NCBI GenBank assembly: GCA_965221125.1
Contig: CBDCRW010000005.1
Span: forward strand, 640,001-704,000
Length of the DNA stretch: 64,000 nt
Direction of reading: 5' to 3'
DNA from: Alphaproteobacteria bacterium
GTDB taxonomy: Bacteria; Pseudomonadota; Alphaproteobacteria; UBA828
Shown here: positions 37,459-55,033 of the stretch, piece by piece
Layout of the letters: each line of letters opens with the position of its first letter
How positions within the stretch are numbered: position 1 is the first letter of the stretch
Notes under the pieces: generated by a model
Seen by the model: the letters and a program-made list of their open reading frames with translations, nothing else
Told to the model about the DNA's origin: nothing
Databases searched by the model: none
Translations under genes and position numbers: made by a program

Positions 37459-37734
37459 ATGGACGAAATGGACATCACGGCATCCGATATCGAGGCCGCG
37501 CTGAAGCGCGAACTGAGGAACCCTCCGACCCCGGTCAGCTGGTGGGAGGTGGAAACCGGGGTCGACTGGGCGGACGACCCCGCAGTGTGGGTGTGGGTCT
37601 ATCTCACGGAAGAGGAGGTGGACTTCGAAACCCGAGACCTGCTGCGGAATACAGTGCGCGATCTGGTCCGCCGCGAGACCGAATCCTCGATGTTGGTCTA
37701 TGTTCGCTTCCGAGGGGCTTCGGAGGCCGCCTGA
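37459..37734 (+). CDS. Small acidic protein, putative MNT-like antitoxin
   Basis: 91 aa, DWADDPAVWVWV, YVRFR; directly upstream of a HEPN-like gene. Confidence 0.55.
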   Translation: MDEMDITASDIEAALKRELRNPPTPVSWWEVETGVDWADDPAVWVWVYLTEEEVDFETRDLLRNTVRDLVRRETESSMLVYVRFRGASEAA

Positions 37735-37739
37735 GTGTC

Positions 37740-38249
37740 GTGAGCCTGCATGTTGACCTGTTGCGGCAAGCCCGACAGCTTGCCGTCAAGGAGCCGCGGC
37801 GGCCCCTGCAGGCGAGCCTGCGCCGGGCAGTCTCGGCGTCGTACTACGCCCTCTTTCATCTGTTGGTCGATGAAGCGACGAAGCGCATGCTTCGTGGTCG
37901 CGACAGAGCCGCTCTCCGCCAGTGCCTGGCACGAGCGTTCGGTCACGCCGCAATGAAACAGGTCGCCCAGCAGTTTTCTGACAGCAAAGTTTCAACGAAG
38001 CTCTCTCCCGGGTTGGGCGGCCAACCCGTGCAACCCGAACTCGTTCGGGTTGCCAGCGCATTCGTCGAACTTCAGGGGGCCCGCCACGAAGCGGATTACG
38101 ACACGGCCCGTCGTTTCACCCGTCGTGAAGTTCTCGATTTCGTGGAGCGGGCGGAGCAGGCGTTTGCCGACTGGCACGGCGTCCGCGGGAGCATTCAGGC
38201 AGATACCTTCCTGACCGGGCTTCTCGCATTCGGAAACATGCGCAGTTGA
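37740..38249 (+). CDS. HEPN-like domain protein
   Basis: RRAVSASYYALFH and RHEADYD motifs; GTG start inside the 36879..38249 ORF. Confidence 0.7.
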   Translation: MSLHVDLLRQARQLAVKEPRRPLQASLRRAVSASYYALFHLLVDEATKRMLRGRDRAALRQCLARAFGHAAMKQVAQQFSDSKVSTKLSPGLGGQPVQPELVRVASAFVELQGARHEADYDTARRFTRREVLDFVERAEQAFADWHGVRGSIQADTFLTGLLAFGNMRS

Positions 38250-38426
38250 CAGTCAGGGGGATACTTGCGTTTCGGGAGTTTCGACAGACTTTGCCGAGGG
38301 GTCTGGGCGAGATTGGGGATCGGCAGTGCGTAGAAGCGCGACGCACTAATGCGATACGTCAGCATAACTTATAAGCGCCATAAGTGGATACTCTTGGACG
38401 CTATATGGCCATATCGAATAGGTTAT

Positions 38427-39879
38427 GGTTGTGTCCCCAGACGTGGTGTAGGAGCTCCCGCTACCCCCGGTAGCTGTGGGTAACCGGCTTGGCGCCGCGA
38501 CCGCCCTCGAGTCTGGTGGCGCCAAGCCGGTTATCCACAGCGGGGTGGCCATCGCGGTTCCGGTTTAGGGTTTGGGTGAATCCGAATCGACCCGAGCCTA
38601 AGGAGAACCACGATGACCGATGACAAGCTTACCCTGCGGACGCTGTTGGAGAAGAGCTCTGACGCCGATCTGCTGCGTGAGATGATCGCCTTCTCTGCGC
38701 AGCGCCTTATGGAGCTGGAAGTCGAGGGCCTGACCGGCGCCGAGCATGGCGCGCGGACGCCGGAGCGGATCAACCAGCGCAACGGCTACCGCGATCGGCC
38801 TTGGGAGACCCGGGCCGGCACGGTCGACCTGAAGATTCCGAAGCTCAGGAAGGGGAGCTACTTCCCCGGCTTCCTGGAGCCCCGACGGACGGCGGAGAAG
38901 GCGCTCACGGCGGTGATCCAGGAGGCCTACATCCAGGGGGTATCGACCCGCTCGGTCGACGAACTGGTTCAGGCCATGGGCATGAGCGGGATATCGAAGA
39001 GCCAGGTCTCGCGCCTTTGCGGGGAGATAGACGACAAGATCCGCAGCTTCCTCGACCGCCCGCTCGAAGGCGACTGGCCCTATCTCTGGCTGGATGCGAC
39101 TTACGTGAAGGTGCGCGAGGCCGGGCGCATCGTCCCGGTCGCGGTCACCGTGGCCGTCGCGGTCAACGACCAGGGCCGGCGCGAGATCCTCGGCATGGCG
39201 ATCGGCGCCTCCGAGGCCGAGACCTTCTGGACCGAGTTCCTGCGCTCGCTGACCAGGCGCGGCCTGCGCGGCGTGCAGCTGGTGATCTCCGACGACCACA
39301 AGGGCCTGAAGGCCGCCACCACCCGGATCCTCGGCGCCACCTGGCAGAGATGCCGCGTCCACTTCATGCGCAACCTGCTGGCCCATGCCGGCAAGCAGGG
39401 CCGGCGCGTCGTCTCCGCCTTCGTCGCCACCGCCTTCGCCCAGGACGATGCCGAGGCCGCTGCCGCCCAGTGGCGCCTGATCGCCGACCAGCTCAGGCCC
39501 AAGGCCTCCAAGCTGGCGGCCCTCATGGACGAGGCCCAGCACGACGTCCTCGCCTACATGAGCTTCCCCAAGGAGCACCGGGTCAAGCTTCACTCGACCA
39601 ACCCGCTCGAACGCGTCAACGGCGAGATCAAGCGACGCACCAACGTCGTCGGCATCTTCCCCAACGAGGACGCCATCACCCGCCTCGTCGGCGCCGTGCT
39701 GCTCGAGCAGAACGACGAATGGACCGTCGGAAGGAGGTACATGACGCTGGAATCGATCGCTCCCCTGAGCGACAATCCCACGATCAAGCTGTCCGCTGTG
39801 GCAGCCTGAATAACCCGGCCCTACCCGCCGGATGCCGCGTAAAGCGCGACGCTCTTACACCACTCCTCGGGACACGATC
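38427..39879 (+). mobile_element. IS256-family insertion sequence with 8-bp target duplication
   Basis: 26-bp imperfect IRs GGTTGTGTCCCCAGACGTGGTGTAGG / GATCGTGTCCCGAGGAGTGGTGTAAG; direct repeat TAGGTTAT at 38419-38426 and 39880-39887. Confidence 0.95.
38613..39809 (+). CDS. IS256-family transposase
   Basis: [54 protein letters not shown]. Confidence 0.97.
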
Positions 39880-40115
39880 TAGGTTATGTCCTGTCGGGAT
39901 TCGTGCCGGCCGGTCGGTGCCGCAGGCCTGCCGAACATGGAGTGACGGGCATGAAGAATTCGCGGTGTGTGGGCGTGCGAACGGGCGGGGACTCGCTTCG
40001 CCACAGGGCCAATTTTGACGCCGGCCGGCGGGCCCGCGACGGTGTCTGCAGAGCCTTGCGGGCATCCCGCGGAACGGGATCGGCCCCAGGTTCCGCCTGA
40101 CGGAATCCGACATCG

Positions 40116-41276
40116 ATGACTTCGGAACCGAGCATGCCGGCGGGCTCTTCGATGCCGCCCGTTTTCGTCACGGGTTCGGCCGGGCATGTCGGTGCCAACC
40201 TCGTGCGCCGGCTGCTCGACGAGGGCGTGCGGGTCCGGGTGTTGTTGAGACACGAGGACAACAACGAGGGCCTGGACGGTCTCGAGGTCGAACGCGTGTT
40301 CGGCGACATTCGGAATTTTGACGACACCAGGCGAGCGCTCGCGGGCTGTCAGGGTGTCTATCACTGCGCGGCCATGATCTCGACCATCGAAGGCAACCGC
40401 GCCCATCGCCGCGACATGTTCGAGTGCAACGTTCTCGGCACCCGCAACGTGCTGCGGGCGGCGCAGGAGGCGGAGGCCGGCCGGGTGGTCGTTACCGGCT
40501 CGTTCAGCGCGGTGGGATACGACCTGGACGATCCCTCCGCTCCCAGCGACGAGACGATGCCGTTCTACCCCATGGAGCGCACGATGCCCTACGAGCGCAG
40601 CAAGTCGCTCGTCGAGCAGGAGTGCTGGCGCGCGGCGGCAACGGGACAGGACGTGGTGGTCGCGACCTGCTGCGCGGTGGTCGGCGGCGCCGATTTCCTC
40701 CCCTCGCGCCTGGGGCGAACGCTCTGCGACTACACGAACGGCAAGCTCCGCGCCTATATCGATGGCGGTTTCGAGTTCGTCGCGGCCCGCGACATCGTCG
40801 AGGGGCACGTGTTGTGCATGCGCCACGGTCGCTCGGGCGAAAAGTACATCTTCAGCACCGAGTACAAGACCATTTCCGATATCCTGGATCTCTACGAGGA
40901 GGTCTCGGGCGTCCCGCGGCCGCGCCGGCGATTTCCGACCCGCCTCATGCTCGTCTTTGCCGAGATCGCGAGCTTCTATCTCAGCCGCTTTCACCCGGAC
41001 TTCCCCCAGCGCTTCACTCCCGGCGCCATACGCCTGTTGCGAAAGTGCCGCCACGCCGACGTCTCCAAGGCGAAACGGGAGCTCGGCTATCGGCCGACCG
41101 GCCTCCGCGCCGCGGTTCAGGAGGCCTACGCGTTTCACTACGGCCGCAACGCGATCGCGAACCCGCAGGCGAAGCGCCCGCGCGAGGACACCGCGAATCA
41201 CCGCGTCGCGCGAGAAGAGGACGATCCCGTGCCGGAGCGAGGCATGCGGACGATGGCGGGCGGGGGCGCGCCATGA
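40116..41276 (+). CDS. sdmB: NAD(P)-dependent extended SDR, 3-beta-HSD/SdmB-like sterol C-4 decarboxylase/reductase
   Basis: TGSAGHVG, HCAA, YERSK; first gene of sterol operon, coupled to Rieske oxygenase. Symbol inferred from context. Confidence 0.7.
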   Translation: MTSEPSMPAGSSMPPVFVTGSAGHVGANLVRRLLDEGVRVRVLLRHEDNNEGLDGLEVERVFGDIRNFDDTRRALAGCQGVYHCAAMISTIEGNRAHRRDMFECNVLGTRNVLRAAQEAEAGRVVVTGSFSAVGYDLDDPSAPSDETMPFYPMERTMPYERSKSLVEQECWRAAATGQDVVVATCCAVVGGADFLPSRLGRTLCDYTNGKLRAYIDGGFEFVAARDIVEGHVLCMRHGRSGEKYIFSTEYKTISDILDLYEEVSGVPRPRRRFPTRLMLVFAEIASFYLSRFHPDFPQRFTPGAIRLLRKCRHADVSKAKRELGYRPTGLRAAVQEAYAFHYGRNAIANPQAKRPREDTANHRVAREEDDPVPERGMRTMAGGGAP

Positions 41277-42370
41277 GGGCGGCGCCCGACGCGCCGCCCG
41301 GCTTCGAGGATGCCGGCAACCTGCGCCAGCAGGCCCGCGCCGCGGGCATGGACCCGAATTACTGGTATCCGGTCGAGGAAGTGAGGCGGATCAAGCCGGA
41401 GACGGTGATCGAGGTCGTCTTCTGGAAGCGTTCCATCGCGCTCTTCCGGGGAAAGGACGGCAATTTCCAGGCGGTCGAGGACCGCTGCGCGCATCGCCAG
41501 CTCAAGCTCTCCATCGGCGACGTGCAGGGTTGCCGGCTCGTCTGCGCCTACCATGGCTGGGAGTACGGCGGCGACGGCCGCCCCGCCGGGGTGCCCTACG
41601 ACGACCAGGGGCGGAGCTTCCCCAACCTTGCGCTCAGGACCTACCCGGTGAAGGTCCGCTACGGCCTGGTCTGGCTCTTCCCGGGAGATCCGGAGCAGGC
41701 GGAGGTGCGCCGGATCCCCGACATTCCCGAGCTCGAGGGACCCGGCCGCTGGGCCTGCGTGCCGCTCTGCTTCACCTGGTCGGCCCACCACTCGATGGTG
41801 ATCGACAATGTGAGCGACTTCACCCACGCCCATCTGCACCGCCGCTACCGGCCCTTCGACGGCGCCACGCTCACCCGCTGCGAGACCGTCGGCGACGACG
41901 TGCACCTCGCCTACGACACGAGCGTCGGGCGCGGGCGCATCTCCGGACTCTTCGTCGATCACGACCGGATCGACACCAATTGCATGGAGCTTTGCTACGA
42001 GTACCCCTACCAGTGGTCGAACACCGATGACGCGATCAAGCACTGGCTCTTCGTGCTGCCGGTCGACGAGCGCACGACCCGCGTGTTCTTCCTGTTCTAC
42101 TTCAAGTCGCTGAAGATTCCCCTGCTGCCGCTGCGCATTCCCCGCCCCGCCATGAACGCGGTCTTGAGGATCTCCAACCGCCTGCTCATCGCCCCTCTGC
42201 TCTCCCAGGACCAGTTCGCGCTGGAGGCGGAGCAGCAGGGATACGAGGAGCACTGGGACGCCCGCCCCGTCGAGTTCAACCCGGTGGTCAGGGCCTTTCA
42301 GAAGGTGACCGTGCGCAAGTGGCGGGAGCATCTCGCGCGCGAAGCGGAGAACGGCGATGCCGCCGCCTGA
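41273..42370 (+). CDS. sdmA: Rieske non-heme iron oxygenase, SdmA-like sterol C-4 methyl oxidase
   Basis: CAHR...CAYHGW Rieske ligands, DNVSDFTHAHLH mononuclear Fe motif; context in sterol operon. Symbol inferred from context. Confidence 0.75.
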   Translation: MRAAPDAPPGFEDAGNLRQQARAAGMDPNYWYPVEEVRRIKPETVIEVVFWKRSIALFRGKDGNFQAVEDRCAHRQLKLSIGDVQGCRLVCAYHGWEYGGDGRPAGVPYDDQGRSFPNLALRTYPVKVRYGLVWLFPGDPEQAEVRRIPDIPELEGPGRWACVPLCFTWSAHHSMVIDNVSDFTHAHLHRRYRPFDGATLTRCETVGDDVHLAYDTSVGRGRISGLFVDHDRIDTNCMELCYEYPYQWSNTDDAIKHWLFVLPVDERTTRVFFLFYFKSLKIPLLPLRIPRPAMNAVLRISNRLLIAPLLSQDQFALEAEQQGYEEHWDARPVEFNPVVRAFQKVTVRKWREHLAREAENGDAAA

Positions 42371-43457
42371 AGCGCTCGACCTCTCGTCGGCGCTCTCCTG
42401 CGGGACCCTGCTCGAGGCGGCGGCGATGGTGCTGGGGTTCATCGCCCTCCTCTTCGTGATGTCGCTGGTCCTGCCGGGTCGTCGCGTCACGGGCCCCGAT
42501 GCCGACGGAAACGAGCGCGTCTACAAGCTCAACGGCCTCTCCCTCTATCTGATCGTCATGATTGCGGCGTGTGGCGCGCAGGCCTCCGGCATTCTCTCCC
42601 TTTCGGTGCTGCATACCCACATTCTCGCCCTCTTCGTCGTGGCGAACGGATTCGCGTTCGCGCTCTCCGGCTGGCTCTACCTGCGCGGCGTGCGAAAGCC
42701 TCATGCATCGCCCCGGTCCTGGCGGGACTTCTTCTACGGCGTGGACGCCGCTCCGGCCTGGTTGGGGCTGGATCTGAAGCTCTTCAGCTATTGCCCCTCG
42801 CTCATCGGCCTCGCCCTCTTCAACGCATCGTTTGCCGCCGTGCAGTACGAGACCTACGGCGAGCTGACCCTGGGGATGATGCTCTACCAAGTCTTCACCT
42901 TCCTCTACGTGCTCAACTACTTCCAGTTCGAGCAGGGGATGATCCACACCTGGGACATCCTTCGCGAGCGCTTCGGGTGGATGCTGGTCTGGGGCGACTA
43001 CGTGCTGGTGCCCTTCTTCTACTGTCTCCCCGGCTGGTGGCTGGTTCACGCACCGGAGCCGCTGTCTCCGGCCGCCGCCGGCGGGATCGTCGTGCTCTTC
43101 GTTTTCGGCTTCTGGCTCTTTCGCGGGTCGAACCAGCAAAAGCACCGCTTCAAGCGCAATCCCGACGCCAGGATCTGGGGCAAGCCGGCCCGGACCCTGG
43201 ACGGGCGCCTGCTGGTCTCCGGATTCTGGGGCATCGGACGGCATCTCAACTATACCGGCGAGATCTGCGTCTATTTCTCGTTCGCCCTCACCACCGGGTT
43301 TAGCTCCTGGGCTCCCTTCCTGTTGCCGGTATGGCTGGCGGGCCTGCTGTGGCACCGCTCGGGACGCGACGAGCGCCGCTGCCGCGCCAAGTACGGCGCG
43401 CTGTGGGAGCGCTATACCCAGCGGGCGCGCTTCGCGATGCTGCCGTTCATCCATTGA
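42357..43457 (+). CDS. ERG4/ERG24-family sterol reductase (probably Delta14-reductase)
   Basis: YKLNG, TWDILRERFGWMLVWGD..VPFFY, LLVSGFWGIGRHLNYTGE, RDERRCRAKYG. Confidence 0.9.
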   Translation: MPPPEALDLSSALSCGTLLEAAAMVLGFIALLFVMSLVLPGRRVTGPDADGNERVYKLNGLSLYLIVMIAACGAQASGILSLSVLHTHILALFVVANGFAFALSGWLYLRGVRKPHASPRSWRDFFYGVDAAPAWLGLDLKLFSYCPSLIGLALFNASFAAVQYETYGELTLGMMLYQVFTFLYVLNYFQFEQGMIHTWDILRERFGWMLVWGDYVLVPFFYCLPGWWLVHAPEPLSPAAAGGIVVLFVFGFWLFRGSNQQKHRFKRNPDARIWGKPARTLDGRLLVSGFWGIGRHLNYTGEICVYFSFALTTGFSSWAPFLLPVWLAGLLWHRSGRDERRCRAKYGALWERYTQRARFAMLPFIH

Positions 43458-43465
43458 GGCCGGCG

Positions 43466-44875
43466 ATGGCAAACCGAATTCACAGTCTGGATGCGCCGCG
43501 CTCGGCTCGGTTCCGGCCGCGCTCGGAGAACGCCGCTCCCATGCTCGCGGGCGGGTGGCCGTTGCTCGGCCATCTGCCGGAATTCCAGAGGGATCCGGTC
43601 GCCATGTTGAGCCGCGGCTGGCGCGAGCATGGCGCGCTCTTCCGCTTCCGGCTCGGGACCCGCGCTTTCGTTCTCTTCGCCGGGCCCGAAGCCCACGACT
43701 TCTATTTCAGGGCACCCGAGGAACAGCTGAACGCCAAGGCCGTCTACCGCTTCACCGTGCCCATCTTCGGACGCGGCGTGGCCTACGACACCTCCCCGGA
43801 GATCATGTCGGAGCAGCTGGGCTTTCTCTTTCCGGCGCTCCGCGAGGCGGCCATGCGCAGGTTCGCCCTCGTCATGTTCGACGAGGCGCGGCAGTTCGCC
43901 GACTCCCTGGGCAAGGAAGGGGAAATCGATCTGCCGCAGGCGATGAACGAGCTCACGGTCAAGATCGCCGGCCGCTGCCTGATCGGACAGGAAGTCCGCG
44001 ATCGGGTGGACGCCGGCTTTGCCGAGATCTACCGCGACCTGCAGAAGGGCATTAACACCCTGGGATTTTTCCTCCCTAGGCTTCCCGTCGCAGCGCATCG
44101 AAAGCGCGACAAGGCCCGGCGACGGGTGGCGGAGCTCTTCGGCGGGATCATGGCCGCGCGCCGGGATGCCGGGGCCAGCCCCGACGACTTCATGCAGACG
44201 CTCATGAACGCCCGCTACAAGAGCGGCCGCGCCCTCAGCGACGACGAGATCACGGGGATCCTGCTGACGGTGCTCTTCGCAGGCCAGCACACCAGCGCGG
44301 TGCTCGCGACCTGGATCGGCCTGGAGCTGCTCAGGGCGCCGGCGTACCTGGCACGGGCGAGAGACGAGGTGCGGGAGGTTTACCGCGAAGCAGGGTCCGT
44401 GAGCATCGACAGCCTCCAGCGCCAGCCGGCCCTGGAGAACGCCGTCCGCGAATGCGAGCGGCTGCACCCGCCGCTGATATTGCTGATCCGGAAGGTGCTC
44501 GAGCCCCTGCGCTACGGAGACCGCGTCGTGCCCGCCGGCACCATGGCGATGGTGTCGCCGGCGGTCTCTCACCGCCTGCCCCACATCTTCGAGGACCCGG
44601 AGCGCTTCTTTCCCGACCGCTTCGCCGCTCCGGCGTGCGAGGACAAGCAGCACCACTACGCCCTGATCGGCTTCGGCGGCGGCAAGCACGCGTGCATGGG
44701 CAAGAACTTCGCGTACATGCAGCTCAAGGCGATCTGGACCGTTCTGCTCGATCGCTTCGATTTCTCTCTCAGCGGCGCGTTTCCCCGTCCGAACTACGGC
44801 AGCTGGGTGACCGGGCCTGAGAGACCGTGCCGCGTCCGCTACCGTCGCCGCGCGCAGCCGAGCGCATTCTCATGA
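43466..44875 (+). CDS. cyp51: Sterol 14-alpha-demethylase cytochrome P450 (CYP51)
   Basis: VYRFTVPIFGRGVAYD (SRS1), FAGQHTS I-helix signature, ECER, heme motif FGGGKHACMG; start could alternatively be ATG 43541. Confidence 0.92.
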   Translation: MANRIHSLDAPRSARFRPRSENAAPMLAGGWPLLGHLPEFQRDPVAMLSRGWREHGALFRFRLGTRAFVLFAGPEAHDFYFRAPEEQLNAKAVYRFTVPIFGRGVAYDTSPEIMSEQLGFLFPALREAAMRRFALVMFDEARQFADSLGKEGEIDLPQAMNELTVKIAGRCLIGQEVRDRVDAGFAEIYRDLQKGINTLGFFLPRLPVAAHRKRDKARRRVAELFGGIMAARRDAGASPDDFMQTLMNARYKSGRALSDDEITGILLTVLFAGQHTSAVLATWIGLELLRAPAYLARARDEVREVYREAGSVSIDSLQRQPALENAVRECERLHPPLILLIRKVLEPLRYGDRVVPAGTMAMVSPAVSHRLPHIFEDPERFFPDRFAAPACEDKQHHYALIGFGGGKHACMGKNFAYMQLKAIWTVLLDRFDFSLSGAFPRPNYGSWVTGPERPCRVRYRRRAQPSAFS

Positions 44876-47800
44876 GCGCCGCCGCGTCGCGGCGTTACGA
44901 CGTGGCCATCGTCGGCGCGGGGCCGGTGGGGAGCCTGTGCGCGCTCGCTCACGCGCGGAAGGGCGCCCGGGTGGCCCTGCTGGAAGCGAATCCCAGGGCG
45001 TCCGAGCGCCTGGCGGGCGAATGGCTGCATCCGCCCGGCGTCCAGATACTGCGGCACTTCGGGATCGGGCCGGACACCCTGCCCCGCAGCACCGCGGGCA
45101 GGGGCTTCGTCGTGTTTCCCGATGACGGCTCGAAGCCGATCGTGCTTCCCTACATGAACGGCTCGCGGGGTCTGGCCTGCGACCATGCGGTGCTCGTCTC
45201 GAAGCTGCGGGACGCCATCGGGAACGAGCCGGACGTGGATTTCTTCGCCCCCGCGCGGGTCGGTGAAGTCGAAGACGGCCGGCTGGCCTTCACCAGCAAC
45301 GGCACGGTTCACACCGTCCGCGCCGCACGGATTATCGGCGCCGACGGCCGGGCCTCGATCGTGCGCCAGTCGCTCGGCCTGTCGACGGACCCGATGCTCT
45401 GCTCGCGCATGCTGGGGGTCACGGTGAGCGGTGTGAGCCTGCCCTTCGAAGGTCATGGGCATGTGCTGCTCGGCGGCCCAGGGCCGATACTCGCCTACGG
45501 CGTGGCAAACGATTGCGTCCGGATCATCGCCGATGTCCCGCTGGACCGCTGGTCACGCCAGGACCGGGTCGGCTTCCTGACGGAATCCTATGCCGCCCTG
45601 CTGCCGGAGACTCTCAGGCCGGCGTTCGTCGAGGCGCTGCGAGCGGGGCAATTCGACGTTGCAGCCAATCAGCTGCGGCCGCGCGTCACTTACGGCACCC
45701 CGCTTCGCGTGTTGATCGGCGACGCGGCCGGGCACTACCACCCCATGACGGCGGTCGGCATGACCCTCGGATTCGGCGATGCGCTCGCCCTCGCCGAGGG
45801 CGGGAGCTTTCGCGACTTCGCCGCCAGGCGCTTCCGGGCGACCCATGTGCCGGAGTTGCTCGCCATGGGGCTCTACGAGGTCTTCGCCGATCGTCGGGCC
45901 GAGGCGGTGGCGATGAAACACGCGGTCTACCGGGGGCTGCGAACGAGCTCCGATTACCGGGAGCGGACCTCGCGGATACTTGCCTGCGAAGATCGATCCG
46001 CGCTCGGGATGGGTCTCGCGTTTTTCGGAACGGCAATCCGGGCGGCGGCCGTGGAGATTCCGCTCTCCCTCCGCCAGTTCGCTCCGCGCCGGGGTCTGAG
46101 GATCTTCGGTGCGCTCGTCGTTCGTCTCTGGTGGCTCCTGCGTTGGGGTCTGCAGCTGCGCCGGTCAAGACGCCGGGGCGGGCGGAACGACGAGCGGGCC
46201 CTGGACAGCCTGGCCCGAGCACTCCTGCACTCCATGCCGTCGGGGCTCGACGCGGCCGGATCCGGCCGGCCGAAGGACTCCGAGGCGCCCGATGCCGGTC
46301 CGGCACTGGCGAGCGCGACGGCGCAGCTCCTCAGCCTCCAGGGCGAGGACGGCGGCTGGGAAGGCGAGATGGTCTGGTGCCCCATGCTCACCGCGCAATA
46401 CGTGCTGCTGCACCACATCATCGGCCGGCCGCTCGAGCCCGGCCGGCGCCGGCGCGTGCTGCGCTCCTTCGAACGGACCCGTCTCGAAGCAGGCTCCTGG
46501 GGCCTGCACGAGCACGCGTCGCCCCACCTCTTCGTCACCGCCATGGTCTACGTCGCGGCGAGGCTGCTCGGGGTCGAGCGTGACGATCCCCTTGTCGAGC
46601 CGGCCCGGCGCTTCATACAGGCCGAGGGGATCGTGGCCATTCCGAGCTGGGGAAAGTTCTGGCTGGCGCTGCTCAACCTCTACGACTGGCGCGGGGTCAA
46701 CGCCGTCCTGCCGGAGCTGTGGAGCCTGCCGCGGCGCATACCCTTGCATCCCTCCAACTGGTACTGCCACACGCGGCTCATCTACATGGCGATGGCGGCG
46801 GTTTACGCGCACCGCTTCCAGGCACCCGTCACGCCCCTGATCGCCGCGCTGCGGGAGGAGCTGTTCCCGCAAGGATTTGCGGAGGTAGATTTCTCCGCCG
46901 CCCGCAGTTGCCTGCGGGAGGCCGACCTCTACGCGCGGCCGAGCGTGTGGCTCAAGGCTGGATACAGGATTGCGCGCGTGTTCGATCGGCTCCACGGCAA
47001 GCGCCTGCGTGCCCGATGCACGGAGGCGATCGTCCGGCAGATCAGATGGGAGCTGCAGACCACCAGCCATACGAGCATCTCTCCGGTGAGCGGCCTTCTC
47101 AACATGCTTGCCCTGTGGCTGCGCGATCCGGACGACGCCGATCTGCACCAGGCGCTCGCGAAGCTGGACGGCTGGTTCTGGGAGGACGAGGAAGAGGGTG
47201 CGCGCGTCGTCGGCGCGAGAAGCGCCTCGTGGGACAGCGGCTTCGCGTTGCAGGCGCTGGCGGCGGCGCCCGCGTTCGACGGGGTAGAGGACGCGCTGCA
47301 GCGCGGCGCCGACTTCCTGCTCAGGCAACAGATTGCCGCCAGCTTCGACGGGTTTCGCGAGGCCTATCGAACCGACCCCAGGGGCGGCTGGTGCTTTGCC
47401 GGGGGATGGCATGGCTGGCCGGTGAGCGACTGCACTGCGGAGGCGGTGCTCGGACTTCACGCTGCCGGTCGCGGCGCTCTGCACGCGAGCGCGTTGCGCG
47501 ATGCGGTCGGGTTCATGCTGCGCTGCCAGAACCGCGATGGCGGATTCGGCAGCTACGAGGCGCGACGCGCGGCTTTCGGTCTGGAGTGGATGAATCCGGC
47601 CGAGATGTTCGGCGATTCGATGACCGAGCAATCCTATGTCGAGTGCACCGTGTCCTGCCTCGCGGCGCTCGCCGCCTGCAGGGAGGACGTTCCGCAAATC
47701 GTGGATGGAGCCGTGACGGGCGCGATCGCCCGGGCCGATGCCTGGCTTCGCCGAACCCAGGCAAGCGACGGGTCGTGGCGCGGCGTGTGGGGGGTTCAGT

Positions 47801-48282
47801 TCATTTACGGAACCCTCTTCGGAATCAGGGGTCTTCTGTCGGCCGGAGCCGGCCCCGACGATCCGGCGCTTCGCTCGGCCTGCCGCTGGCTGCTGGAGCG
47901 CCAGCGGGAAGACGGCGGATGGGGCGAGCACCACAGCGGCTGCCTGACCGGCCGATACGTGCCGCACGAGGAAAGCCAGGTCGTCCAGACCGCGTGGGCC
48001 TTGATCGCACTCCTCGAGGCGAACGAATCGAACTGGACTGCGATTTCGCGGGGCGCCCGCTTCCTGCTCGACGCGCAGGACGCCGACGGGACGTGGCCCA
48101 GGCAGGACATGGCTGGCGTGTTCTTCCGAACGGCGCTCCTGGATTACGTGCTGTACCGACGGTATTTCCCGCTGCACGCGCTCGCTCTCTACGAGCGCCG
48201 CCGCCGCGAGCGGCTGGGTCTCGCCGCCGCCCCGCGCGCCGCCGACGCGCCTGCGGCTCCGTCCGAGGCGGCTGCGGCCTGA
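44872..48282 (+). CDS. osc: Squalene epoxidase - oxidosqualene cyclase fusion protein
   Basis: N-half: IVGAGPVG, RLAGEWLHPPG, GADG, IGDAAGHYHPMTAVGMT. C-half: QW repeats (QGEDGGW, QNRDGGF, QASDGSW, QREDGGWGE, QDADGTW), WYCHTR, GWPVSDCTAE; continuous frame. Confidence 0.93.
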   Translation: MSAAASRRYDVAIVGAGPVGSLCALAHARKGARVALLEANPRASERLAGEWLHPPGVQILRHFGIGPDTLPRSTAGRGFVVFPDDGSKPIVLPYMNGSRGLACDHAVLVSKLRDAIGNEPDVDFFAPARVGEVEDGRLAFTSNGTVHTVRAARIIGADGRASIVRQSLGLSTDPMLCSRMLGVTVSGVSLPFEGHGHVLLGGPGPILAYGVANDCVRIIADVPLDRWSRQDRVGFLTESYAALLPETLRPAFVEALRAGQFDVAANQLRPRVTYGTPLRVLIGDAAGHYHPMTAVGMTLGFGDALALAEGGSFRDFAARRFRATHVPELLAMGLYEVFADRRAEAVAMKHAVYRGLRTSSDYRERTSRILACEDRSALGMGLAFFGTAIRAAAVEIPLSLRQFAPRRGLRIFGALVVRLWWLLRWGLQLRRSRRRGGRNDERALDSLARALLHSMPSGLDAAGSGRPKDSEAPDAGPALASATAQLLSLQGEDGGWEGEMVWCPMLTAQYVLLHHIIGRPLEPGRRRRVLRSFERTRLEAGSWGLHEHASPHLFVTAMVYVAARLLGVERDDPLVEPARRFIQAEGIVAIPSWGKFWLALLNLYDWRGVNAVLPELWSLPRRIPLHPSNWYCHTRLIYMAMAAVYAHRFQAPVTPLIAALREELFPQGFAEVDFSAARSCLREADLYARPSVWLKAGYRIARVFDRLHGKRLRARCTEAIVRQIRWELQTTSHTSISPVSGLLNMLALWLRDPDDADLHQALAKLDGWFWEDEEEGARVVGARSASWDSGFALQALAAAPAFDGVEDALQRGADFLLRQQIAASFDGFREAYRTDPRGGWCFAGGWHGWPVSDCTAEAVLGLHAAGRGALHASALRDAVGFMLRCQNRDGGFGSYEARRAAFGLEWMNPAEMFGDSMTEQSYVECTVSCLAALAACREDVPQIVDGAVTGAIARADAWLRRTQASDGSWRGVWGVQFIYGTLFGIRGLLSAGAGPDDPALRSACRWLLERQREDGGWGEHHSGCLTGRYVPHEESQVVQTAWALIALLEANESNWTAISRGARFLLDAQDADGTWPRQDMAGVFFRTALLDYVLYRRYFPLHALALYERRRRERLGLAAAPRAADAPAAPSEAAAA

Positions 48283-48348
48283 TTCCCGGTCCCGAGCGTC
48301 GGCGTTCCCGCAGAGGCGCGCGCGGCCGACAGATAACGCCCGCTTCGA

Positions 48349-49380
48349 TCAGTCGTGCGGGGGGCCGGGCTTGCGGGCCAGGAAAAAGAACATCGGCGTG
48401 AAGACGCCGGACCTGCCGCCGTCCACCAGCGCGTCCGCCGCCGCGTTCAGGAGCGTGCTGACCGCGCGGGAGCCCTCGGGAAAGAGCCGAAGCCGTTCGC
48501 CCACCCGCAAGGTCAGGTTGGTCAGCGCGCGGCCGACGGGCGTGCGCGGAAGACTCGAAAGACTGAGGTCACGACCCTGCAAGGCACGATACCAGGGCAT
48601 CTCCGGGTCCGCTTCGGGCGCGCGGTCGCGCGCGTCCAGGAGCTCGAATCCCGCCGTCCGCAACGCGGCGGAAACCTGCGACGTGGAAGCGATGTCCGGC
48701 AGCGCATCGCCGACCATGATGTCGTTCCTGATTCGCCGATGCTCCGCGTTGGCTGAATCGAATTTCTCGGTGAGGCACCAGTCGTAGCCCGCGAAGCAGG
48801 CTCCGGGACGAAGCACACGCAGGATCTCCCGGAACGCCGCTGTCTTGTCGGGCGCGTGGGGCATGGACTCGATCGCAATGGCAGCATCGTAGCGGTCGTC
48901 TTCCTCGGGAATCTGCATGTAGTCGCCGTGAATGAAGCGGCATAACGACCGGACATCCCGGGTGTGAAGTTTGGCGCGCTCGATCTGGTAGGCGTTGTTG
49001 TTGATTCCGACAAAGCTGGCCCCGGAATGGCGGGCCAGATTGCCCGTCGGCCCGCCGACACCGCAGCCGACATCGAGCACGTGCATACCCGGCTTCAGGG
49101 ACAGCCTTTCGGCCAGAAAATGCTGGTGCCGGAGCAGCGACGCCTTGAAGCTCTCGCCCCGCCTTCGGGGAGCGAAGTGAAAGGACTGGCCCCAACCGAA
49201 CTCATAGAAATCGGTCACCAGATCGTAGTAGCGATTCACGAACGAGCGATAATGCTCCTTCCTGCGCTCCAGGCCGGCATCGTAGATTTCGGTGTATCCG
49301 TCGACCGTGGACCTTACTTCGTCCGGGGCGAGATTCGCGAGGGTGCGCGCTTTCGATCGTGCGCCGGAGGTGCGATTCAT
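48349..49380 (-). CDS. smt: Sterol C-24 methyltransferase (SMT/ERG6-like)
   Basis: YYDLVTDFYEFGWGQSFHFA (SMT region I), LDVGCGVGGP, GINNNAYQ, IESMPHAP, GYDW, LVDGGRSGVFTPMFFFLARKP. Confidence 0.92.
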   Translation of the reverse strand: MNRTSGARSKARTLANLAPDEVRSTVDGYTEIYDAGLERRKEHYRSFVNRYYDLVTDFYEFGWGQSFHFAPRRRGESFKASLLRHQHFLAERLSLKPGMHVLDVGCGVGGPTGNLARHSGASFVGINNNAYQIERAKLHTRDVRSLCRFIHGDYMQIPEEDDRYDAAIAIESMPHAPDKTAAFREILRVLRPGACFAGYDWCLTEKFDSANAEHRRIRNDIMVGDALPDIASTSQVSAALRTAGFELLDARDRAPEADPEMPWYRALQGRDLSLSSLPRTPVGRALTNLTLRVGERLRLFPEGSRAVSTLLNAAADALVDGGRSGVFTPMFFFLARKPGPPHD

Positions 49381-49545
49381 CCGTGCATCTTGCCAGAGCC
49401 GCACGTCGTCCCCAAGACCGGCGTGTTGCGGGTTCCAGCGCTTCGCTTCATGTCACCGATACGGACCGCGTCCGGGGTGCCGCCCTCTCCGCGGGGTACA
49501 ATGCGGCAAGCCTCAGCACCGGCGTATCCGAGAGGAGCGAATCGC

Positions 49546-50280
49546 ATGATCGAAAGGCAAGCGGACCGAGGCCCATGCGAATCCGGCACTCACCGGACCT
49601 GGCTGGCAATCCCGCCGGTGGTGTTCGCCGGGTCGATCATCGCGATTCTGACAGCGGCCGGCATCGGTGCGCGCTACGGCGTTCGTGGCGATTTCGACGT
49701 CATTCATGCACTCCTGATGCTCTTCTTTTCGATCAACCTGTTGATATGCCACTGGGAGGTGTGCCTCTTCTTCAGGCGGGATTATGTCGAGAAGCGTGCC
49801 GAATACTGGCGTGAGCGCCGAGACGAAACAGGCCGGACATCGGCCGTCGAATTCCTCACCGGAAGGGTTCCGTTGACGCGAATATTGTCGTCGACGGTAT
49901 GGGCCGACGTCTGGGCTACCTATTCCCAGTTCGACGGTTCCTACGCCGACCGGCGCACGTACGGCTACAACGTGGATATCGCCAACGGCTTCGTAACGCC
50001 GGTGCCGACGCTGATCCTCTTCGCCGCCTTCACCGTCGATTTCCTGCCCGCCCTCGTCGCCGGCATCGTCGGGGCGATGCTGTTCTGGCAGCTGACCTAC
50101 GCGACCTCGGTCTATTGGGTCAGCTTTTTCGTGGCCAAGCGGCAAAGACGCATCGGCCGCAAGGATATGTACATCTACATCTGGGGACTGAATTGCCCGT
50201 GGGTGCTGTTCGCCCTGCTGGGCCTCTACGTCTCCATTCGCCTGATTCTTGACGGCAACTACAGCGTTCTCGGCCATTGA
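49546..50280 (+). CDS. Membrane protein, EBP/EXPERA-like (candidate sterol Delta8-Delta7 isomerase)
   Basis: About 5 TM segments; HWE, VWATYSQFDGSYAD and GLNCPW resemble EBP W.EY..DSRY and N..W; RBS gaggag. Confidence 0.55.
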   Translation: MIERQADRGPCESGTHRTWLAIPPVVFAGSIIAILTAAGIGARYGVRGDFDVIHALLMLFFSINLLICHWEVCLFFRRDYVEKRAEYWRERRDETGRTSAVEFLTGRVPLTRILSSTVWADVWATYSQFDGSYADRRTYGYNVDIANGFVTPVPTLILFAAFTVDFLPALVAGIVGAMLFWQLTYATSVYWVSFFVAKRQRRIGRKDMYIYIWGLNCPWVLFALLGLYVSIRLILDGNYSVLGH

Positions 50281-50430
50281 TCGCGGCTTCCCCCGGAACA
50301 ACGCCGATCGAGGGTAATCCTTCGGTCATAGAGTGATGGCATGTTGGGCGTTGACATCAACGACCGCGCCTGGAGACGCGCTCGGTAGGAATTGCTGGTA
50401 ACGAATTTCGCCATGCGCTAGCGTGAGTGC

Positions 50431-52716
50431 ATGGCGATTCGCGACGCGTCTGCCGCGGCACACCTCTCGCTGGTCGAGGGGTCTGACGGTCCATGGTCTT
50501 TTCCTCCTGATAATCCGTCCTCCGAAGAGCCGGACTGGCGATCCCTGTCCGAGCGGGCGCACGCCCGTGCGGAGAGCGAGGGGGCGCGGGCAGACGCGGC
50601 TGAAGCGCGCATCCAGGAACTGCTCGGCGATATCCGTCGGCTCCGCGCTTCTTTGCGCAAAACGGGAGCAGCCGGAAGTACGGGGGAGCCGCTGCCGAGG
50701 GGTGCCCGTGGAGCGCACAAAGCGCCGCGAAGATTGCGACGGAACGACACCATCGGCTCGCTGCATGTGGAGAACGCCGAACTGCGCGAGGAGGCCACAA
50801 CGCTGCGCAAGGCGGCGGGTGCGGCACAGACGTCGCTCTCCAGGAAAGACGCCCGGCTGCTCAAGGCCCGGGAACGTTCGCAGGCCCAAAGGAGCACGAT
50901 CGAGGAGCTGCGCCGGCAGGTCCGTTCCCTGGAAAGGCAGGTCGCCCGGCAGAGCCGCGACCTGGAGGAGGCGGAAAGCCGCAGGCAGACTATCCGTGAT
51001 CTCTCCCGCGAGAACGCGGAACTCCGTGGAGCACTCAGGGATTGGCGCGACCAGGAGGCCACCATCGAATGGTTCGACGGCCGCGTCAGCGAGCTGGAAT
51101 GTGCCCTGGACGAGGCCGCAGACGAGAGGCGGTGGATGGAGGCCGATCTTGCCGATCGCCCTCTGTTGCCCGTGGCCTTCGAACGACTGCGCACCCAGGA
51201 GAAGACGATCCAATCGCTCACCGAGAAGATCCAGTCCCTCTCCGAGAAAAACGAGCGGTTGCGGGCCCGGATCACGGACCTGGAGGCGACGGTTGCCAGG
51301 CACCGTGCGAGCAGGGCCGTGCTGTCCAAGGCACTGTTCGGCAGCAAGAGCGAGCAGCAGGAGAAGCCCAGCACGGGGCGCAAGCGCGGCCAGCAGCGCG
51401 GCGCTCCCGGCCACGGCCGTACCCCGCGGCCCGGGCTCGAGGAGCGCACCGACAAGCGCAACCCGCCCAAGGACGCGCGCGCGTGCTCCTGTTGCGGCAA
51501 GCCCTATGTCGCCAACGGCGAGCACGTCTCGACCATCATCGAGATCGAGGTCAAGGCCCACAAACGCAGGATCGTCCGCCCCCGCTGGCGCCGGGGTTGC
51601 GACTGCCCGTCCTCGCCCCTGGAAGTGACGGCGCCCCCGCCGCTGCGCCTGTTCCCCAGGACACCCTACGGAACCAGCGTGTGGGCGAGCTTCCTCTACG
51701 AGCGCTACGCCTCTCTGCGGCCCCTCAGCCAGGTCTCCGCGTGGCTGTCCGGCCTCGGTCTGCCGATCGCTGCCGGCACCCTCGCCGGCAGCGTGGAGCG
51801 CTTCATTCCTGTGTTCGAGCCCGTGGCGGACGCGATCCTCGCGCACCAGAACCAACAGGCGGTCCGTCACGGCGACGAGACCGGCTGGCGTATCCAGTCG
51901 CTGCGCGAGATCGGCCGCTCCAACCGCGCGTGGCTGTGGAACTCGGTCAGCGAGGATGCGGTCTACTTCCACTGCGACCCCTCGCGCTCGGCCGAGGCCG
52001 CGAAGACGTTGTTCGGCGATACCGCCGTCGTCGTGTTCGTGGTCTGCGACCGCCTCTCCAGCTACAAGAAGATGGCGCGCGACCTCGACGGCAAGGTGAT
52101 CCTCTGCTTCTGCTGGGTCCATCAACGGCGGGACTTCATCCAATGCGCGGCCAGCCACAATCGGCTGACGGACTGGTGCCAGAGTTGGATCGAGCGCATC
52201 GCCTCGATCTACAGCCTGAACAAGGCGCGGCTGCGGCATTACGACCCCGCTCTGGAGCGCCAGACGCCACAGTTCGACGCCGCACAGAGAGAGTTGGAGA
52301 AGGCCGTCGACAAGCTGTTCGCGGACGCAAAAGCGGAACTGGCCGGCCTGCCGGCCGGCTCGCGCGAGGCCAAGCCGCTGCGCTCGCTGCTCAACCACCG
52401 CGAGGGGTTGTGCGTCTTCGTCGACAACCCGCAGGTGCCCATGGACAATAACGCTGCCGAGCGGGCGTTCAGGAAAGCGGTCATAGGACGACGCCTCAGC
52501 TTCGGATCCGACAGCGAGGACGGCGCGAAGTTCACGGCAATCATGTACTCCGTCGTCGGCACCCTCGCCATGAACGGCATCGATGTCCGGCGCTGGCTGG
52601 AGGCATGGCTGAAGACCTGCGCGAAGAATGGCGGCAAACCGCCGGACGACTTGTCGCCCTGGCTGCCGTGGTCGATGAGCGAGAAGCGAAGGCGCAAGTT
52701 CACGGCGCCGGGATGA
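50431..52716 (+). CDS. IS66-family transposase with extended N-terminal coiled coil
   Basis: LFGSKSE, GAPGHGR, CSCCG zinc finger, HGDETGW, VCDRLSSY, CWVHQRRDF, DNNAAERAFR. Confidence 0.93.
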   Translation: MAIRDASAAAHLSLVEGSDGPWSFPPDNPSSEEPDWRSLSERAHARAESEGARADAAEARIQELLGDIRRLRASLRKTGAAGSTGEPLPRGARGAHKAPRRLRRNDTIGSLHVENAELREEATTLRKAAGAAQTSLSRKDARLLKARERSQAQRSTIEELRRQVRSLERQVARQSRDLEEAESRRQTIRDLSRENAELRGALRDWRDQEATIEWFDGRVSELECALDEAADERRWMEADLADRPLLPVAFERLRTQEKTIQSLTEKIQSLSEKNERLRARITDLEATVARHRASRAVLSKALFGSKSEQQEKPSTGRKRGQQRGAPGHGRTPRPGLEERTDKRNPPKDARACSCCGKPYVANGEHVSTIIEIEVKAHKRRIVRPRWRRGCDCPSSPLEVTAPPPLRLFPRTPYGTSVWASFLYERYASLRPLSQVSAWLSGLGLPIAAGTLAGSVERFIPVFEPVADAILAHQNQQAVRHGDETGWRIQSLREIGRSNRAWLWNSVSEDAVYFHCDPSRSAEAAKTLFGDTAVVVFVVCDRLSSYKKMARDLDGKVILCFCWVHQRRDFIQCAASHNRLTDWCQSWIERIASIYSLNKARLRHYDPALERQTPQFDAAQRELEKAVDKLFADAKAELAGLPAGSREAKPLRSLLNHREGLCVFVDNPQVPMDNNAAERAFRKAVIGRRLSFGSDSEDGAKFTAIMYSVVGTLAMNGIDVRRWLEAWLKTCAKNGGKPPDDLSPWLPWSMSEKRRRKFTAPG

Positions 52717-53594
52717 CCGGCGCCATCGAGTGCCGCTACTACGGGCGCGACTTCACTTCGGAAGAGATGGCGCTGCTGCGCGCGCTCATCGCCGCCGACC
52801 CGCCCCTCAACCGCCATGCCCTGTCCAAGGAGTTCTGCCGGCGCATCGGCTGGGTCAAGCCTGACGGCGGGCTCAAGGACATGATGGCCAGGGTCACCAT
52901 GCTGGCCATGCACAAGGACGGTCTGATCACCCTGCCGCCGCCGAGATGGAAACCGGGTCCGCCAAAGCCCATCGTCTTCGGGCCTGACACCGAGCCGCCG
53001 CTCTTCCCCGCCCCCACTACCCTCGATGACGTTCGCCCGCTCGAGATGCGCACCGTCGTGCGCAACACCCGGGAGGGCAAGCTCTGGAACGAGTTCGTCG
53101 CCCGCTACCACTACCTCGGCTTCAAGACCCTGGTCGGTGCCCAGATGCGCTACGCCGTCCACGGCCGCGACGGCTGGCCGCTCGCCATGCTCGGCTTCTC
53201 CACCGCCGCCTGGAAGCTCGCGCCGCGCGACAGCTTCATCGGGTGGACGCCCGAGAAGCGCGAGAAAAACCTGCCGCTGGTGGTCGACAACCCGCGTTTC
53301 CTCATCCTGCCCTGGATCAAGATCCCAAACCTCGGCTCGCACATCCTCGCCATCGTCCGCCGCCGCCTGCCCGAGGATTGGATCGAGCGCTACAACACCA
53401 CGCCCGTGCTCGTCGAGACCTTCGTCCAGAGGCCGCCCTACACCGGCGCCGTCTACAGGGCCTCGGGATGGATCCATGTCGGAACCACACAGGGGCGCGG
53501 CCGCTATGACAGATACTCCCAAAGGGCCCTGCCGCAGAAAGACATCTGGCTCCGGCCCCTCCGAAAAGACTGGAAACGAGCACTCAACCGATGA
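52713..53594 (+). CDS. DUF4338 (DruA-like) domain protein
   Basis: RYYGRDF, RYHYLG, RDSFIGW, DNPRFLILPW, NLGSHIL, VETFV, GAVYRASGW; ATGA overlap with transposase. Confidence 0.85.
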   Translation: MTGAIECRYYGRDFTSEEMALLRALIAADPPLNRHALSKEFCRRIGWVKPDGGLKDMMARVTMLAMHKDGLITLPPPRWKPGPPKPIVFGPDTEPPLFPAPTTLDDVRPLEMRTVVRNTREGKLWNEFVARYHYLGFKTLVGAQMRYAVHGRDGWPLAMLGFSTAAWKLAPRDSFIGWTPEKREKNLPLVVDNPRFLILPWIKIPNLGSHILAIVRRRLPEDWIERYNTTPVLVETFVQRPPYTGAVYRASGWIHVGTTQGRGRYDRYSQRALPQKDIWLRPLRKDWKRALNR

Positions 53595-55011: not shown

Positions 55012-55033
55012 CCTTGGGTCCTCCTCTGGGCGG

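Follow-up and report, generated by a model that had tools for sequence, protein, structure and literature searches.

A likely alphaproteobacterial copy of the horizontally spread sterol cassette of sponge symbionts, with a candidate EBP-fold isomerase

The window analysed here is a stretch of 64,000 nucleotides from an alphaproteobacterium of the lineage UBA828. It spans positions 640,001 to 704,000 of contig CBDCRW010000005.1 (C5) in a 4.58-Mb, seven-contig assembly (GCA_965221125.1), which is estimated to be 92% complete with 5.8% contamination. Seven intact genes at positions 40116–50280 very likely constitute an alphaproteobacterial copy of a sterol cassette that has spread horizontally among sponge symbionts, where the same kind of cluster is known as the msb locus or as clusters of steroid genes (CSGs). 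Five of the genes form a plus-strand operon, which is accompanied by a convergent sterol methyltransferase (SMT) gene and a divergent gene for a membrane protein, here called X244:

40116–41276, plus strand: SdmB-like short-chain dehydrogenase/reductase (SDR), first gene of the operon
41273–42370, plus strand: SdmA-like Rieske oxygenase, with a 4-bp overlap with the SDR gene
42357–43457, plus strand: ERG4/ERG24 reductase, with a 14-bp overlap with the Rieske gene
43466–44875, plus strand: CYP51 P450 of 469 amino acids, after an 8-bp gap from the reductase gene
44872–48282, plus strand: squalene epoxidase–oxidosqualene cyclase (SE-OSC) fusion of 1136 amino acids, with a 4-bp overlap with the CYP51 gene
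48349–49380, minus strand: SMT of 343 amino acids, convergent, 66 bp from the stop of the fusion gene
49546–50280, plus strand: X244, a membrane protein of 244 amino acids, divergent from the SMT gene across a 165-bp spacer

Profile matches, coordinates and substitution rates agree with the initial annotation, made from the letters alone, which had described seven intact genes in this arrangement. All seven frames are full length compared with those of relatives. The ratio of nonsynonymous to synonymous substitution rates (dN/dS), calculated pairwise against four related loci, is 0.13–0.38 for the seven genes (0.17–0.38 for X244), indicating that every one of them is a real gene under constraint. 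The Pfam, NCBIfam or PDB matches are strong for six of the seven. The true start of X244 is the ATG at 49546, which is preceded by a ribosome-binding site; the open reading frame (ORF) listed from 48964 to the same stop at 50280 is an over-extension. A scan of 38200–50400 returned one promoter-like site (1.2 expected) and ten terminator-like sites (6.1 ± 2.8 expected).

The fusion protein combines two enzymes. Its squalene epoxidase half occupies approximately residues 1–410 and matches Pfam SE (PF08491) with 85 bits (cut-off 20.1), FAD_binding_3 with 73.7 bits and human squalene monooxygenase (PDB 6c6n) with 84.5 bits. The oxidosqualene cyclase half, approximately residues 480–1110, is covered by Pfam SQHop_cyclase_N (179 bits) and SQHop_cyclase_C (184 bits). 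This half scores 752.5 bits with the NCBIfam model osq_cycl (TIGR03463) versus 273.2 bits with hopene_cyclase, and among PDB sequences it matches human lanosterol synthase (1w6k) with 429.8 bits versus 174.7 bits for hopene cyclase (1gsz). The catalytic aspartate lies in a DCTAE-type motif in oxidosqualene cyclases and in a DxDDTA motif in hopene cyclases; the fusion carries WHGWPVSDCTAEA at residue 846, which is of the DCTAE type. By homology, and in line with the initial annotation, the cyclase is an oxidosqualene cyclase and not a hopene cyclase. Relatives were collected by scanning the fusion against one genome per prokaryotic species; 402 were found, and the counts of loci given below cover the best-scoring 80. 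The motif WHGWPV(S/T)DCT is present in all 80. It places a valine, the lanosterol-type residue, two positions before the catalytic aspartate and a histidine, the cycloartenol-type residue, four positions earlier still. The valine, at the product-determining position, suggests a lanosterol-type protosterol, and the product is probably, although not certainly, lanosterol.

The remaining operon genes and the SMT gene would provide the downstream functions. The 56 best PDB sequence matches of the P450 are all CYP51 or sterol 14α-demethylases (359.5–203.8 bits, with 6mcw at the top at 359.5 bits), compared with 137.9 bits for the best non-CYP51 P450. The protein contains the haem-thiolate motif FGGGKHACMG and no fused ferredoxin. 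The reductase, which is the only match to PF01222 in the whole genome, scores 233 bits with that model (cut-off 27) and 221.5 bits with a Δ14-sterol reductase in the PDB (4quv); its adjacency to CYP51 and the names of its best PDB matches point to Δ14 regiospecificity. The Rieske protein consists of Pfam Rieske and VanA_C domains and matches NF052579 (SdmA) with 393.4 bits over positions 5–348 of 351, compared with 36.5 bits for the next NCBIfam model. The top NCBIfam model of the SDR is NF052578 (SdmB, 288.8 bits), with HpnA close behind at 233.9 bits; in Pfam it matches Epimerase (115 bits) and 3Beta_HSD (66 bits). The SDR gene adjoins and overlaps the SdmA-like gene, which supports an SdmA/SdmB pairing, and the two proteins would act as a 4-methylsterol monooxygenase and an NAD(P)-dependent C-4 decarboxylase/3-ketoreductase, respectively. 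The SMT matches Sterol_MT_C (PF08498) with 75.1 bits (cut-off 21.7) and Methyltransf_11 with 66.7 bits. The sterol-binding "region I" motif of SMTs is of the type YEYGWG-SFHF; the protein in the window carries YEFGWGQSFHF, and a motif of the same form was observed in 47 of 51 related SMTs scanned. Sterol_MT_C is single-copy in this genome.

We infer every enzymatic step, the product, its expression and the movement of the cassette from the sequence. Squalene would be supplied by the hopanoid-type pathway of the host. The N-terminal domain of the fusion would epoxidise squalene and the C-terminal domain would cyclise oxidosqualene to a protosterol, for which the lanosterol type is suggested. 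CYP51 and the ERG24-type reductase would then remove the 14α-methyl group and reduce the Δ14 bond, SdmA and SdmB would take off at least one C-4 methyl group, and the SMT would methylate C-24. X244, for which an EBP fold is predicted, would most likely shift the nuclear double bond from Δ8 to Δ7. The gene identities and the pathway proposed in the initial annotation thus hold, by homology. According to the available text of Lee 2023 (PMC10202945), SdmAB remove one C-4 methyl group in Methylococcus capsulatus and both in Calothrix, and Enhygromyxa needs SdmC in addition. Since these three outcomes exist, one or both C-4 methyl groups may go here.

The cluster had also been called self-contained, which does not hold. 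As noted at the time, the window lacks genes for a squalene synthase, a C-5 desaturase and a second reductase: across the genome, PF00494 matches occur on contig C4 only, the two FA_hydroxylase matches are both on C4, and PF01222 is matched once. The proposed search for hpnCDE recovered two of the three genes. HpnD (309 bits) and HpnC (250.7 bits), both above their cut-offs, are encoded beside dxr on C4, and a hopene cyclase (TIGR01507, 787.5 bits), HpnH and dxs are found on C3. HpnE was not found with TIGR03467 or PF01593 in the 92%-complete assembly, which yielded matches to the N-terminal FAD/dinucleotide-binding motif only. With HpnC and HpnD on another contig and HpnE not found, the cluster is not self-contained, and the squalene supply is of the hopanoid type with its last step unaccounted for. 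The best HpnE candidate, an Oxidored_FMN/Pyr_redox protein, was rejected. An amine-oxidase-family gene, possibly HpnE-like, is located just upstream of sdmB in 16 of the 80 loci (e.g. L045:3633–5168); it has no tblastn match in this genome at E ≤1e-5.

Further partner genes are dispersed on C4. A GPP34-P450 gene there is 55% identical to a family that stands beside the cassette in 26 of the 80 loci. It is a fusion ORF of 678 amino acids, with a second SdmB/HpnA-like SDR immediately after it (C4:915613–918742; L107 9614–12743) that scores 197 bits with NF052578 and 218 bits with HpnA. The two may be a further sterol-tailoring pair, with the SDR in a role like that of SdmC. Also on C4, an MMPL transporter (68% identity), which matches a sterol-sensing domain, and a LolA-like protein (55% identity) belong to families that flank the cassette in 18 and nine of the 80 loci, respectively. 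They are grouped with an uncharacterised ORF of 427 amino acids (C4:884476–888986; L108 6477–10987), and paralogous sets are present on C7 and C3. This trio resembles the sterol transporter of Methylococcus. The set on C3, which is near the hopene cyclase, may be a hopanoid transporter.

The full-length fusion occurs in all 80 loci with 64–93% identity. The five-gene operon is colinear, with the same order and spacing, in 56 of them; the SMT gene is in the locus in 54 (opposite strand in 36, same strand in 18) and X244 in 26. All seven genes are found together in 14 loci, and the fusion gene stands alone in ten. Record titles label the 80 loci with eight phyla: Pseudomonadota (55; 26 alpha, 29 gamma), Nitrospirota (7), Binatota (3), Actinomycetota (3), Thermodesulfobacteriota (2), Acidobacteriota (2), Nitrospinota (1) and Rhodothermota (1), with six loci unlabelled. 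Many titles name sponge-symbiont taxa or bins. In a FastTree tree of the fusion proteins, which is shallow as a whole and mostly groups the phyla separately, the copy in the window falls among alphaproteobacterial metagenome-assembled genomes (MAGs) with supports of 99 and 100; the labels of these nearest relatives bear out the alphaproteobacterial host that had been suggested. The closest fusion outside the genus-level group (L010, from a gammaproteobacterial MAG labelled Thiotrichales) is sister to the alphaproteobacterial group of the window with a support of 99, which reflects either inter-class transfer or a binning error. The stretch was recovered in sequencing runs from nine studies. 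Of the 23 runs listed, 17 bear an environmental-metagenome label (14 sponge, one coral, one marine, one unspecified), and the other six, among them the four that match the stretch best, bear coded organism names.

This kind of cluster is already known, and the novelty implied by the initial annotation does not stand: the same type, with the epoxidase and cyclase fused and an SMT gene alongside, has been in print for sponge symbionts since 2020–2023. The msb locus (msbA–F) of a gammaproteobacterial symbiont of Melophlus sarasinorum encodes a bifunctional epoxidase/cyclase (msbE) and an SMT (Mohanty 2020, PMC7074536). As far as the available text describes it, the gene content is shared with the window: an NAD(P) oxidoreductase gene overlapping a Rieske oxygenase gene, a sterol reductase, a 14α-demethylase, the bifunctional epoxidase/cyclase with a lanosterol-type valine, and the SMT. 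The valine was used there to call the homologue a lanosterol cyclase. The squalene synthase gene is located away from the msb cassette, as the squalene-synthesis genes are away from the locus here. Unlike the msb locus as described, the cassette in the window resides in an alphaproteobacterial host, includes X244 and is accompanied by two insertion sequence (IS) elements. The CSGs were reported from 115 of 537 Ircinia sponge MAGs in 11 classes and ten phyla, with horizontal gene transfer and purifying selection (Kelly 2022, PMC9531527). In the available text they share the core ERG24-CYP51-LSS, and their 5´ "DFR" and hypothetical protein correspond to SdmB and SdmA here. The CSGs carry an SMT or FDFT1 gene at the 3´ end on the opposite strand; no FDFT1 gene lies beside the copy in the window. 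The main text of that paper, in its available form, does not contain the words fusion, transposase, mobile or plasmid, presents no insertion-site or empty-site analysis and names ERG2 in several CSGs and no EBP-like gene. The MAG names of several loci collected here follow the naming pattern of that study.

Another known comparator is the sterol pathway of Methylococcus capsulatus, with SdmA/SdmB and a CYP51–ferredoxin fusion. The NCBIfam SdmA and SdmB models that are the best matches here were built on this species, and its CYP51 is the best PDB match 6mcw. In contrast to M. capsulatus, CYP51 is without a ferredoxin domain here, the epoxidase and the cyclase are fused, and SdmA and SdmB fall below the equivalog cut-offs of those models. 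M. capsulatus is not known to have an SMT.

Instead of a membrane sterol, such a cassette could build a triterpenoid or steroid scaffold for a secreted natural product, for example a norlanostane saponin like the sarasinosides. Sarasinoside biosynthesis is the role assigned in the available text of Mohanty 2020 (PMC7074536) to the msb locus, whose six genes are arranged alike, and SdmA/SdmB-type enzymes would then perform other redox tailoring. Conversely, the 80 loci with their eight phylum labels and many sponge hosts are more widely distributed than any one saponin. The families that recur at the flanks of these loci are the P450, the MMPL/sterol-sensing transporter, the amine oxidase and the LolA-like protein, with no recurrent glycosyltransferase among them. 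In addition, eight of the ten symbiont SMTs assayed were able to methylate desmosterol in vitro, some made 24-ethyl or 24-isopropyl side chains, and many are clustered with sdmA, sdmB and an oxidosqualene cyclase gene (available text of Brown 2023, PMC10070321); these homologues act on ordinary sterols at C-24. A saponin scaffold is decidedly unlikely on this evidence, and a cassette for C-24-methylated sterols is preferred.

X244 is the only protein of the cassette without a database family. It has no Pfam or NCBIfam match, PF05241 (EBP) is absent even at E up to 1, and Pfam EBP has no match anywhere in this genome; sub-threshold Pfam EBP/EXPERA matches were observed in four of 58 members of its family (best E 0.0029). 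The AlphaFold2 model of X244, calculated with 20 homologues, has a mean predicted local distance difference test score of 84 and a predicted template modelling (TM) score of 0.80. Foldseek aligned it with human EBP in the PDB (8w0r_A, E 0.027, probability 1.00, TM-scores 0.47/0.53; 6oht_A, TM-scores 0.51/0.59) at 12–14% identity, and all other listed matches have TM-scores of 0.23 or less. The best PDB sequence match of the 58-member family profile is likewise EBP (E 0.045, 16.4 bits), and a protein-atlas feature search of X244 also leads to an EBP-bearing set. The 20-member profile yielded chance matches only among PDB sequences (E 0.39 or worse). Four family-invariant or near-invariant residues, Glu71, Asp144, Asn216 and Trp219, pair in the E 0.045 profile match with Glu88, Glu130, Asn201 and Trp204 of the EBP chain. 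Given an 8-residue chain offset, these presumably correspond to Glu80, Glu122, Asn193 and Trp196. The residues essential in EBP are His76, Glu80, Glu122, Asn193 and Trp196. His76 of EBP aligns with Ile67 of X244 in a part of the alignment that scores below zero, and the stretch containing Glu71 scores −0.3.

X244 resembles human EBP, a 3β-hydroxysteroid Δ8,Δ7-isomerase of the EXPERA superfamily, in both predicted fold and best profile match; it differs in the lack of a Pfam EBP match and in the Ile67 residue at the position of His76. The label "EBP-like" in the initial annotation is sustained for fold and remote profile resemblance but not for family membership. The predicted model moderately supports the EBP fold. 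The family of X244 comprises 324 representatives at E ≤0.001 in a profile search of 1.84 billion representatives. Its named members are all "hypothetical" or "unknown", and no precomputed Pfam domain is attached to the proteins listed in two homology searches. A diatom branch is well populated (Seminavis, Thalassiosira, Skeletonema, Nitzschia, Stephanocyclus and Attheya; about 27–30% identity to X244), and its proteins (P0198, P0118, P0178 and others) have neither names nor Pfam domains. With regard to a plant-type cyclopropyl isomerase, a search with a diatom member gave unnamed diatom and metagenome proteins only.

The distribution of X244 follows that of SE-OSC. Among 401 alphaproteobacterial genomes sampled evenly, three, from two genera, contain the X244 family, and the same three contain SE-OSC; in the genus of the window, X244 is present in all seven SE-OSC carriers and in one further species (G020). 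Neither X244 nor an oxidosqualene cyclase-grade match was found in a phylum-level sample of 400 other genomes. ERG2 (PF04622) has no match in this genome or in four other cassette carriers, a search in which the controls gave none either. In the literature searched, which covered few subscription papers, no bacterial EBP/EXPERA homologue was found in a sterol cluster. EBP arose within eukaryotes according to the available text of Hoshino and Gaucher 2021. The main text of Lee 2023 (PMC10202945), as available, names ERG2 and nowhere EBP, and mentions, for the Calothrix cluster, a homologue for C-8 isomerisation. The model, the profiles and the co-occurrence lead us to regard X244 as a putative, remotely related EXPERA-fold protein with a functional link to the cassette, most probably as a sterol nucleus isomerase.

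The cassette is part of a discrete insertion between two convergent host genes, an ORF at 36879–38249 (plus strand) and an ORF at 53809–55113 (minus strand). The insertion and its parts are:

38251–53820, no strand: lineage-specific insertion of 15.6 kb (cassette and two IS elements), the site of which is empty in four of five congeners
38255–38427, no strand: conserved non-coding left end, sharing 88% identity with the sequence immediately next to the cassette in L003/L103 and 73% with that in L004
38428–39879, plus strand: IS256/Mutator-family element of 1452 bp, with the transposase at 38613–39809, 236 bp upstream of sdmB
50314–53640, plus strand: IS66-family element of 3327 bp, 33 bp downstream of X244 (DDE_Tnp_IS66, 182 bits in Pfam)
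53641–53702, no strand: conserved non-coding right end, 81% identical to the stretch right after X244 in G015/L103

The left and right flanks come within about 45 bp of each other in G002, G011, G015 and G019, four of the five congeners compared; the left flank reaches window positions 37279–37291 (38250 in G011) and the right flank begins at 53821. Because the flanks are adjacent in these congeners, 38251–53820 is a lineage-specific insertion. The four species carry their own cassettes on another contig or 3.3 Mb away, and about 10 kb of other DNA occupies the site in the congener G008. The nucleotide similarity to the nearest loci (88–89%) covers exactly positions 39891–50313. Among six congener loci compared pairwise, the cassette of 10.4–10.5 kb is the sole shared stretch in 12 of 15 pairs; the three remaining pairs, formed by L004, L015 and L105, also share DNA to the right of it. 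Neither terminal inverted repeats nor a recombinase/integrase or tRNA was seen at the cassette ends, so no mechanism of mobilisation can be proposed. Of the neighbouring sequence, the ORF at 36879–38249 (456 amino acids) matches nothing but HEPN, and that weakly (E 0.19); G011 retains its full length (83% nucleotide identity), and approximately its first 400 bp remain in G002, G015 and G019. A dispersed repeat of about 170 bp at 36723–36896, in the spacer after an ABC-transporter ATPase gene, has raised read depth and dozens of matches per congener genome (72–89% identity).

Both IS elements are recent insertions and are located in the non-coding ends of the cassette, outside its genes. The IS256/Mutator-family element (Transposase_mut, 407 bits in Pfam) has imperfect inverted-repeat ends and is bordered by a 9-bp duplication, TAGGTTATG, at 38419–38427 and 39880–39888; it now splits the conserved left end from sdmB. 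Fourteen copies with 100% identity are present on contigs C4–C7, which points to bursts of transposition that happened very recently in this symbiont, and one unitig of run X18 corresponds exactly to 38427–39879 at about eight times the flank depth. The IS66-family element is bordered by the 9-bp duplication CGATCGAGG at 50305–50313 and 53641–53649, and a contig of run X22 joins 50304 to 53641, a form without this element. A DruA-like (Druantia) ORF at 52605–53594 (Pfam, 123.6 bits) lies inside the element, and a second, interrupted copy of the IS66-family element is found at C5:118273–126225.

Within the genus, the fusion gene is present in seven of 20 other species; it is absent from all 40 other sampled genomes of the family, order and class. 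The nearest cassettes are those of the same genus, with 87–93% identity. Dxs identity in the genus is 88–96% versus 87–93% for SE-OSC, and the comparison does not separate vertical descent with loss from within-genus transfer. Damage was seen in two of the seven congener cassettes. That of G015 (C71; L003/L103) has lost sdmB, sdmA and ERG24, with its conserved left end abutting the middle of the CYP51 gene, and has an in-frame TAG in the fusion gene; that of G011 (C3; L105) has about 2.7 kb inserted in sdmB. Retention is thus not universal. Sterol_MT_C genes are more widespread, occurring in 13 of the 20 congeners. Six of the 13 congeners that lack the cyclase have an SMT without SE-OSC (G003, G004, G007, G010, G014 and G020, of which G007 and G010 are only 62–67% complete), which hints at the methylation of sterols that the bacterium does not make. 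Moreover, five of the seven cassette carriers encode a second, unlinked SMT. The SMT in the window, perhaps together with X244, might accordingly act mainly on sterols of the sponge host rather than on a de novo product, and host-sterol modification is raised for a Chlamydiae SMT in the available text of Brown 2023 (PMC10070321). However, the single SMT gene of this genome adjoins, in convergent orientation, a complete de novo operon, and X244 accompanies SE-OSC rather than SMT alone in both samples described above. We consider a main role on host sterols improbable and favour methylation of the cassette's own sterol.

Several observations weigh against the preferred reading. The 752.5 bits of the cyclase are below the curated TIGR03463 cut-off of 851, with the model covering only the C-terminal 630 residues of the fusion, and the SdmA- and SdmB-like scores are both below the equivalog cut-off of 600 for NF052579 and NF052578. 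A redox partner was found for none of CYP51, SdmA and the epoxidase, and HpnE was not found, as described. The IS256-type element comes between sdmB and 173 bp of conserved sequence upstream, with a possible effect on transcription. To these are added the broken cassettes of the two congeners and the lack of a spanning assembly: Logan contigs from four runs are short unitigs, none of which spans 37–54 kb, and their breaks at IS copies and related-symbiont variants prove nothing either way. Many apparent joints of 20–21 nt in these contigs were set aside as cross-matches among related cassettes.

The position of the IS elements immediately before the first and after the last gene, the HpnE gap and the broken congener cassettes would be expected of a recently acquired, poorly expressed or decaying passenger that makes little or no sterol. 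The G+C content at third codon positions of the seven genes (0.79–0.92), compared with a mean of 0.923 in 22 host ORFs of the window, also fits this idea. It is nevertheless unlikely, in view of seven full-length frames, dN/dS ratios that indicate constraint in each gene and the confinement of both IS elements to non-coding ends. The contamination estimate of the MAG and the absence of a single run contig across the region could likewise point to eukaryotic (sponge) DNA or to a mis-binned or chimeric contig. This origin is exceedingly unlikely. The genes lack introns and overlap at their starts and stops, SdmA and SdmB represent the bacterial C-4 system, and the cassette lies inside a 764-kb contig. 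The flanks of the insertion are 88–92% identical to and syntenic with those of congeners; together with the same-genus cassettes and the identical IS copies on four contigs, this argues against a chimeric contig, a possibility that the initial annotation had raised. The copy in the window is thus read as a genuine alphaproteobacterial sterol cassette.

A more far-reaching reading joins the enzyme and the element. X244 would found an unannotated branch of EXPERA/EBP proteins, with 324 representative clusters in sponge symbionts of many phyla and in diatoms, and would be the missing nuclear double-bond isomerase, acting from Δ8 to Δ7 or in a related carbocation isomerisation such as cyclopropyl ring opening; the cassette of about 10.5 kb would be a discrete unit that relocates between sites within the genus and between phyla without a recombinase of its own. 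We offer this combination tentatively and regard it as doubtful in its entirety. It would contrast with the bacterial isomerases discussed so far, which are of the ERG2 type.

C-24-alkylated steranes are read as biomarkers of eukaryotes and sponges. Bacterial cassettes able to make C-24-alkylated sterols weaken this reading, an argument that has been in print since 2020–2023, and the locus described here adds one more intact example from a nearly complete alphaproteobacterial genome. Potentially new are the empty sites as evidence for a discrete mobile cassette, the turnover of the cassette among species of a single genus and a candidate enzyme with a predicted EBP fold. The cassette appears as a discrete insertion, with an empty site in congeners and a different genomic context in each species, and the IS insertions here and the broken copies in sister species reflect ongoing turnover. 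X244, an EBP-fold protein by prediction that travels with the cassette, provides a testable candidate for a step that has not been assigned. Finally, the many congeners with an SMT but no cyclase are relevant to the question of whether sponge symbionts modify host sterols.

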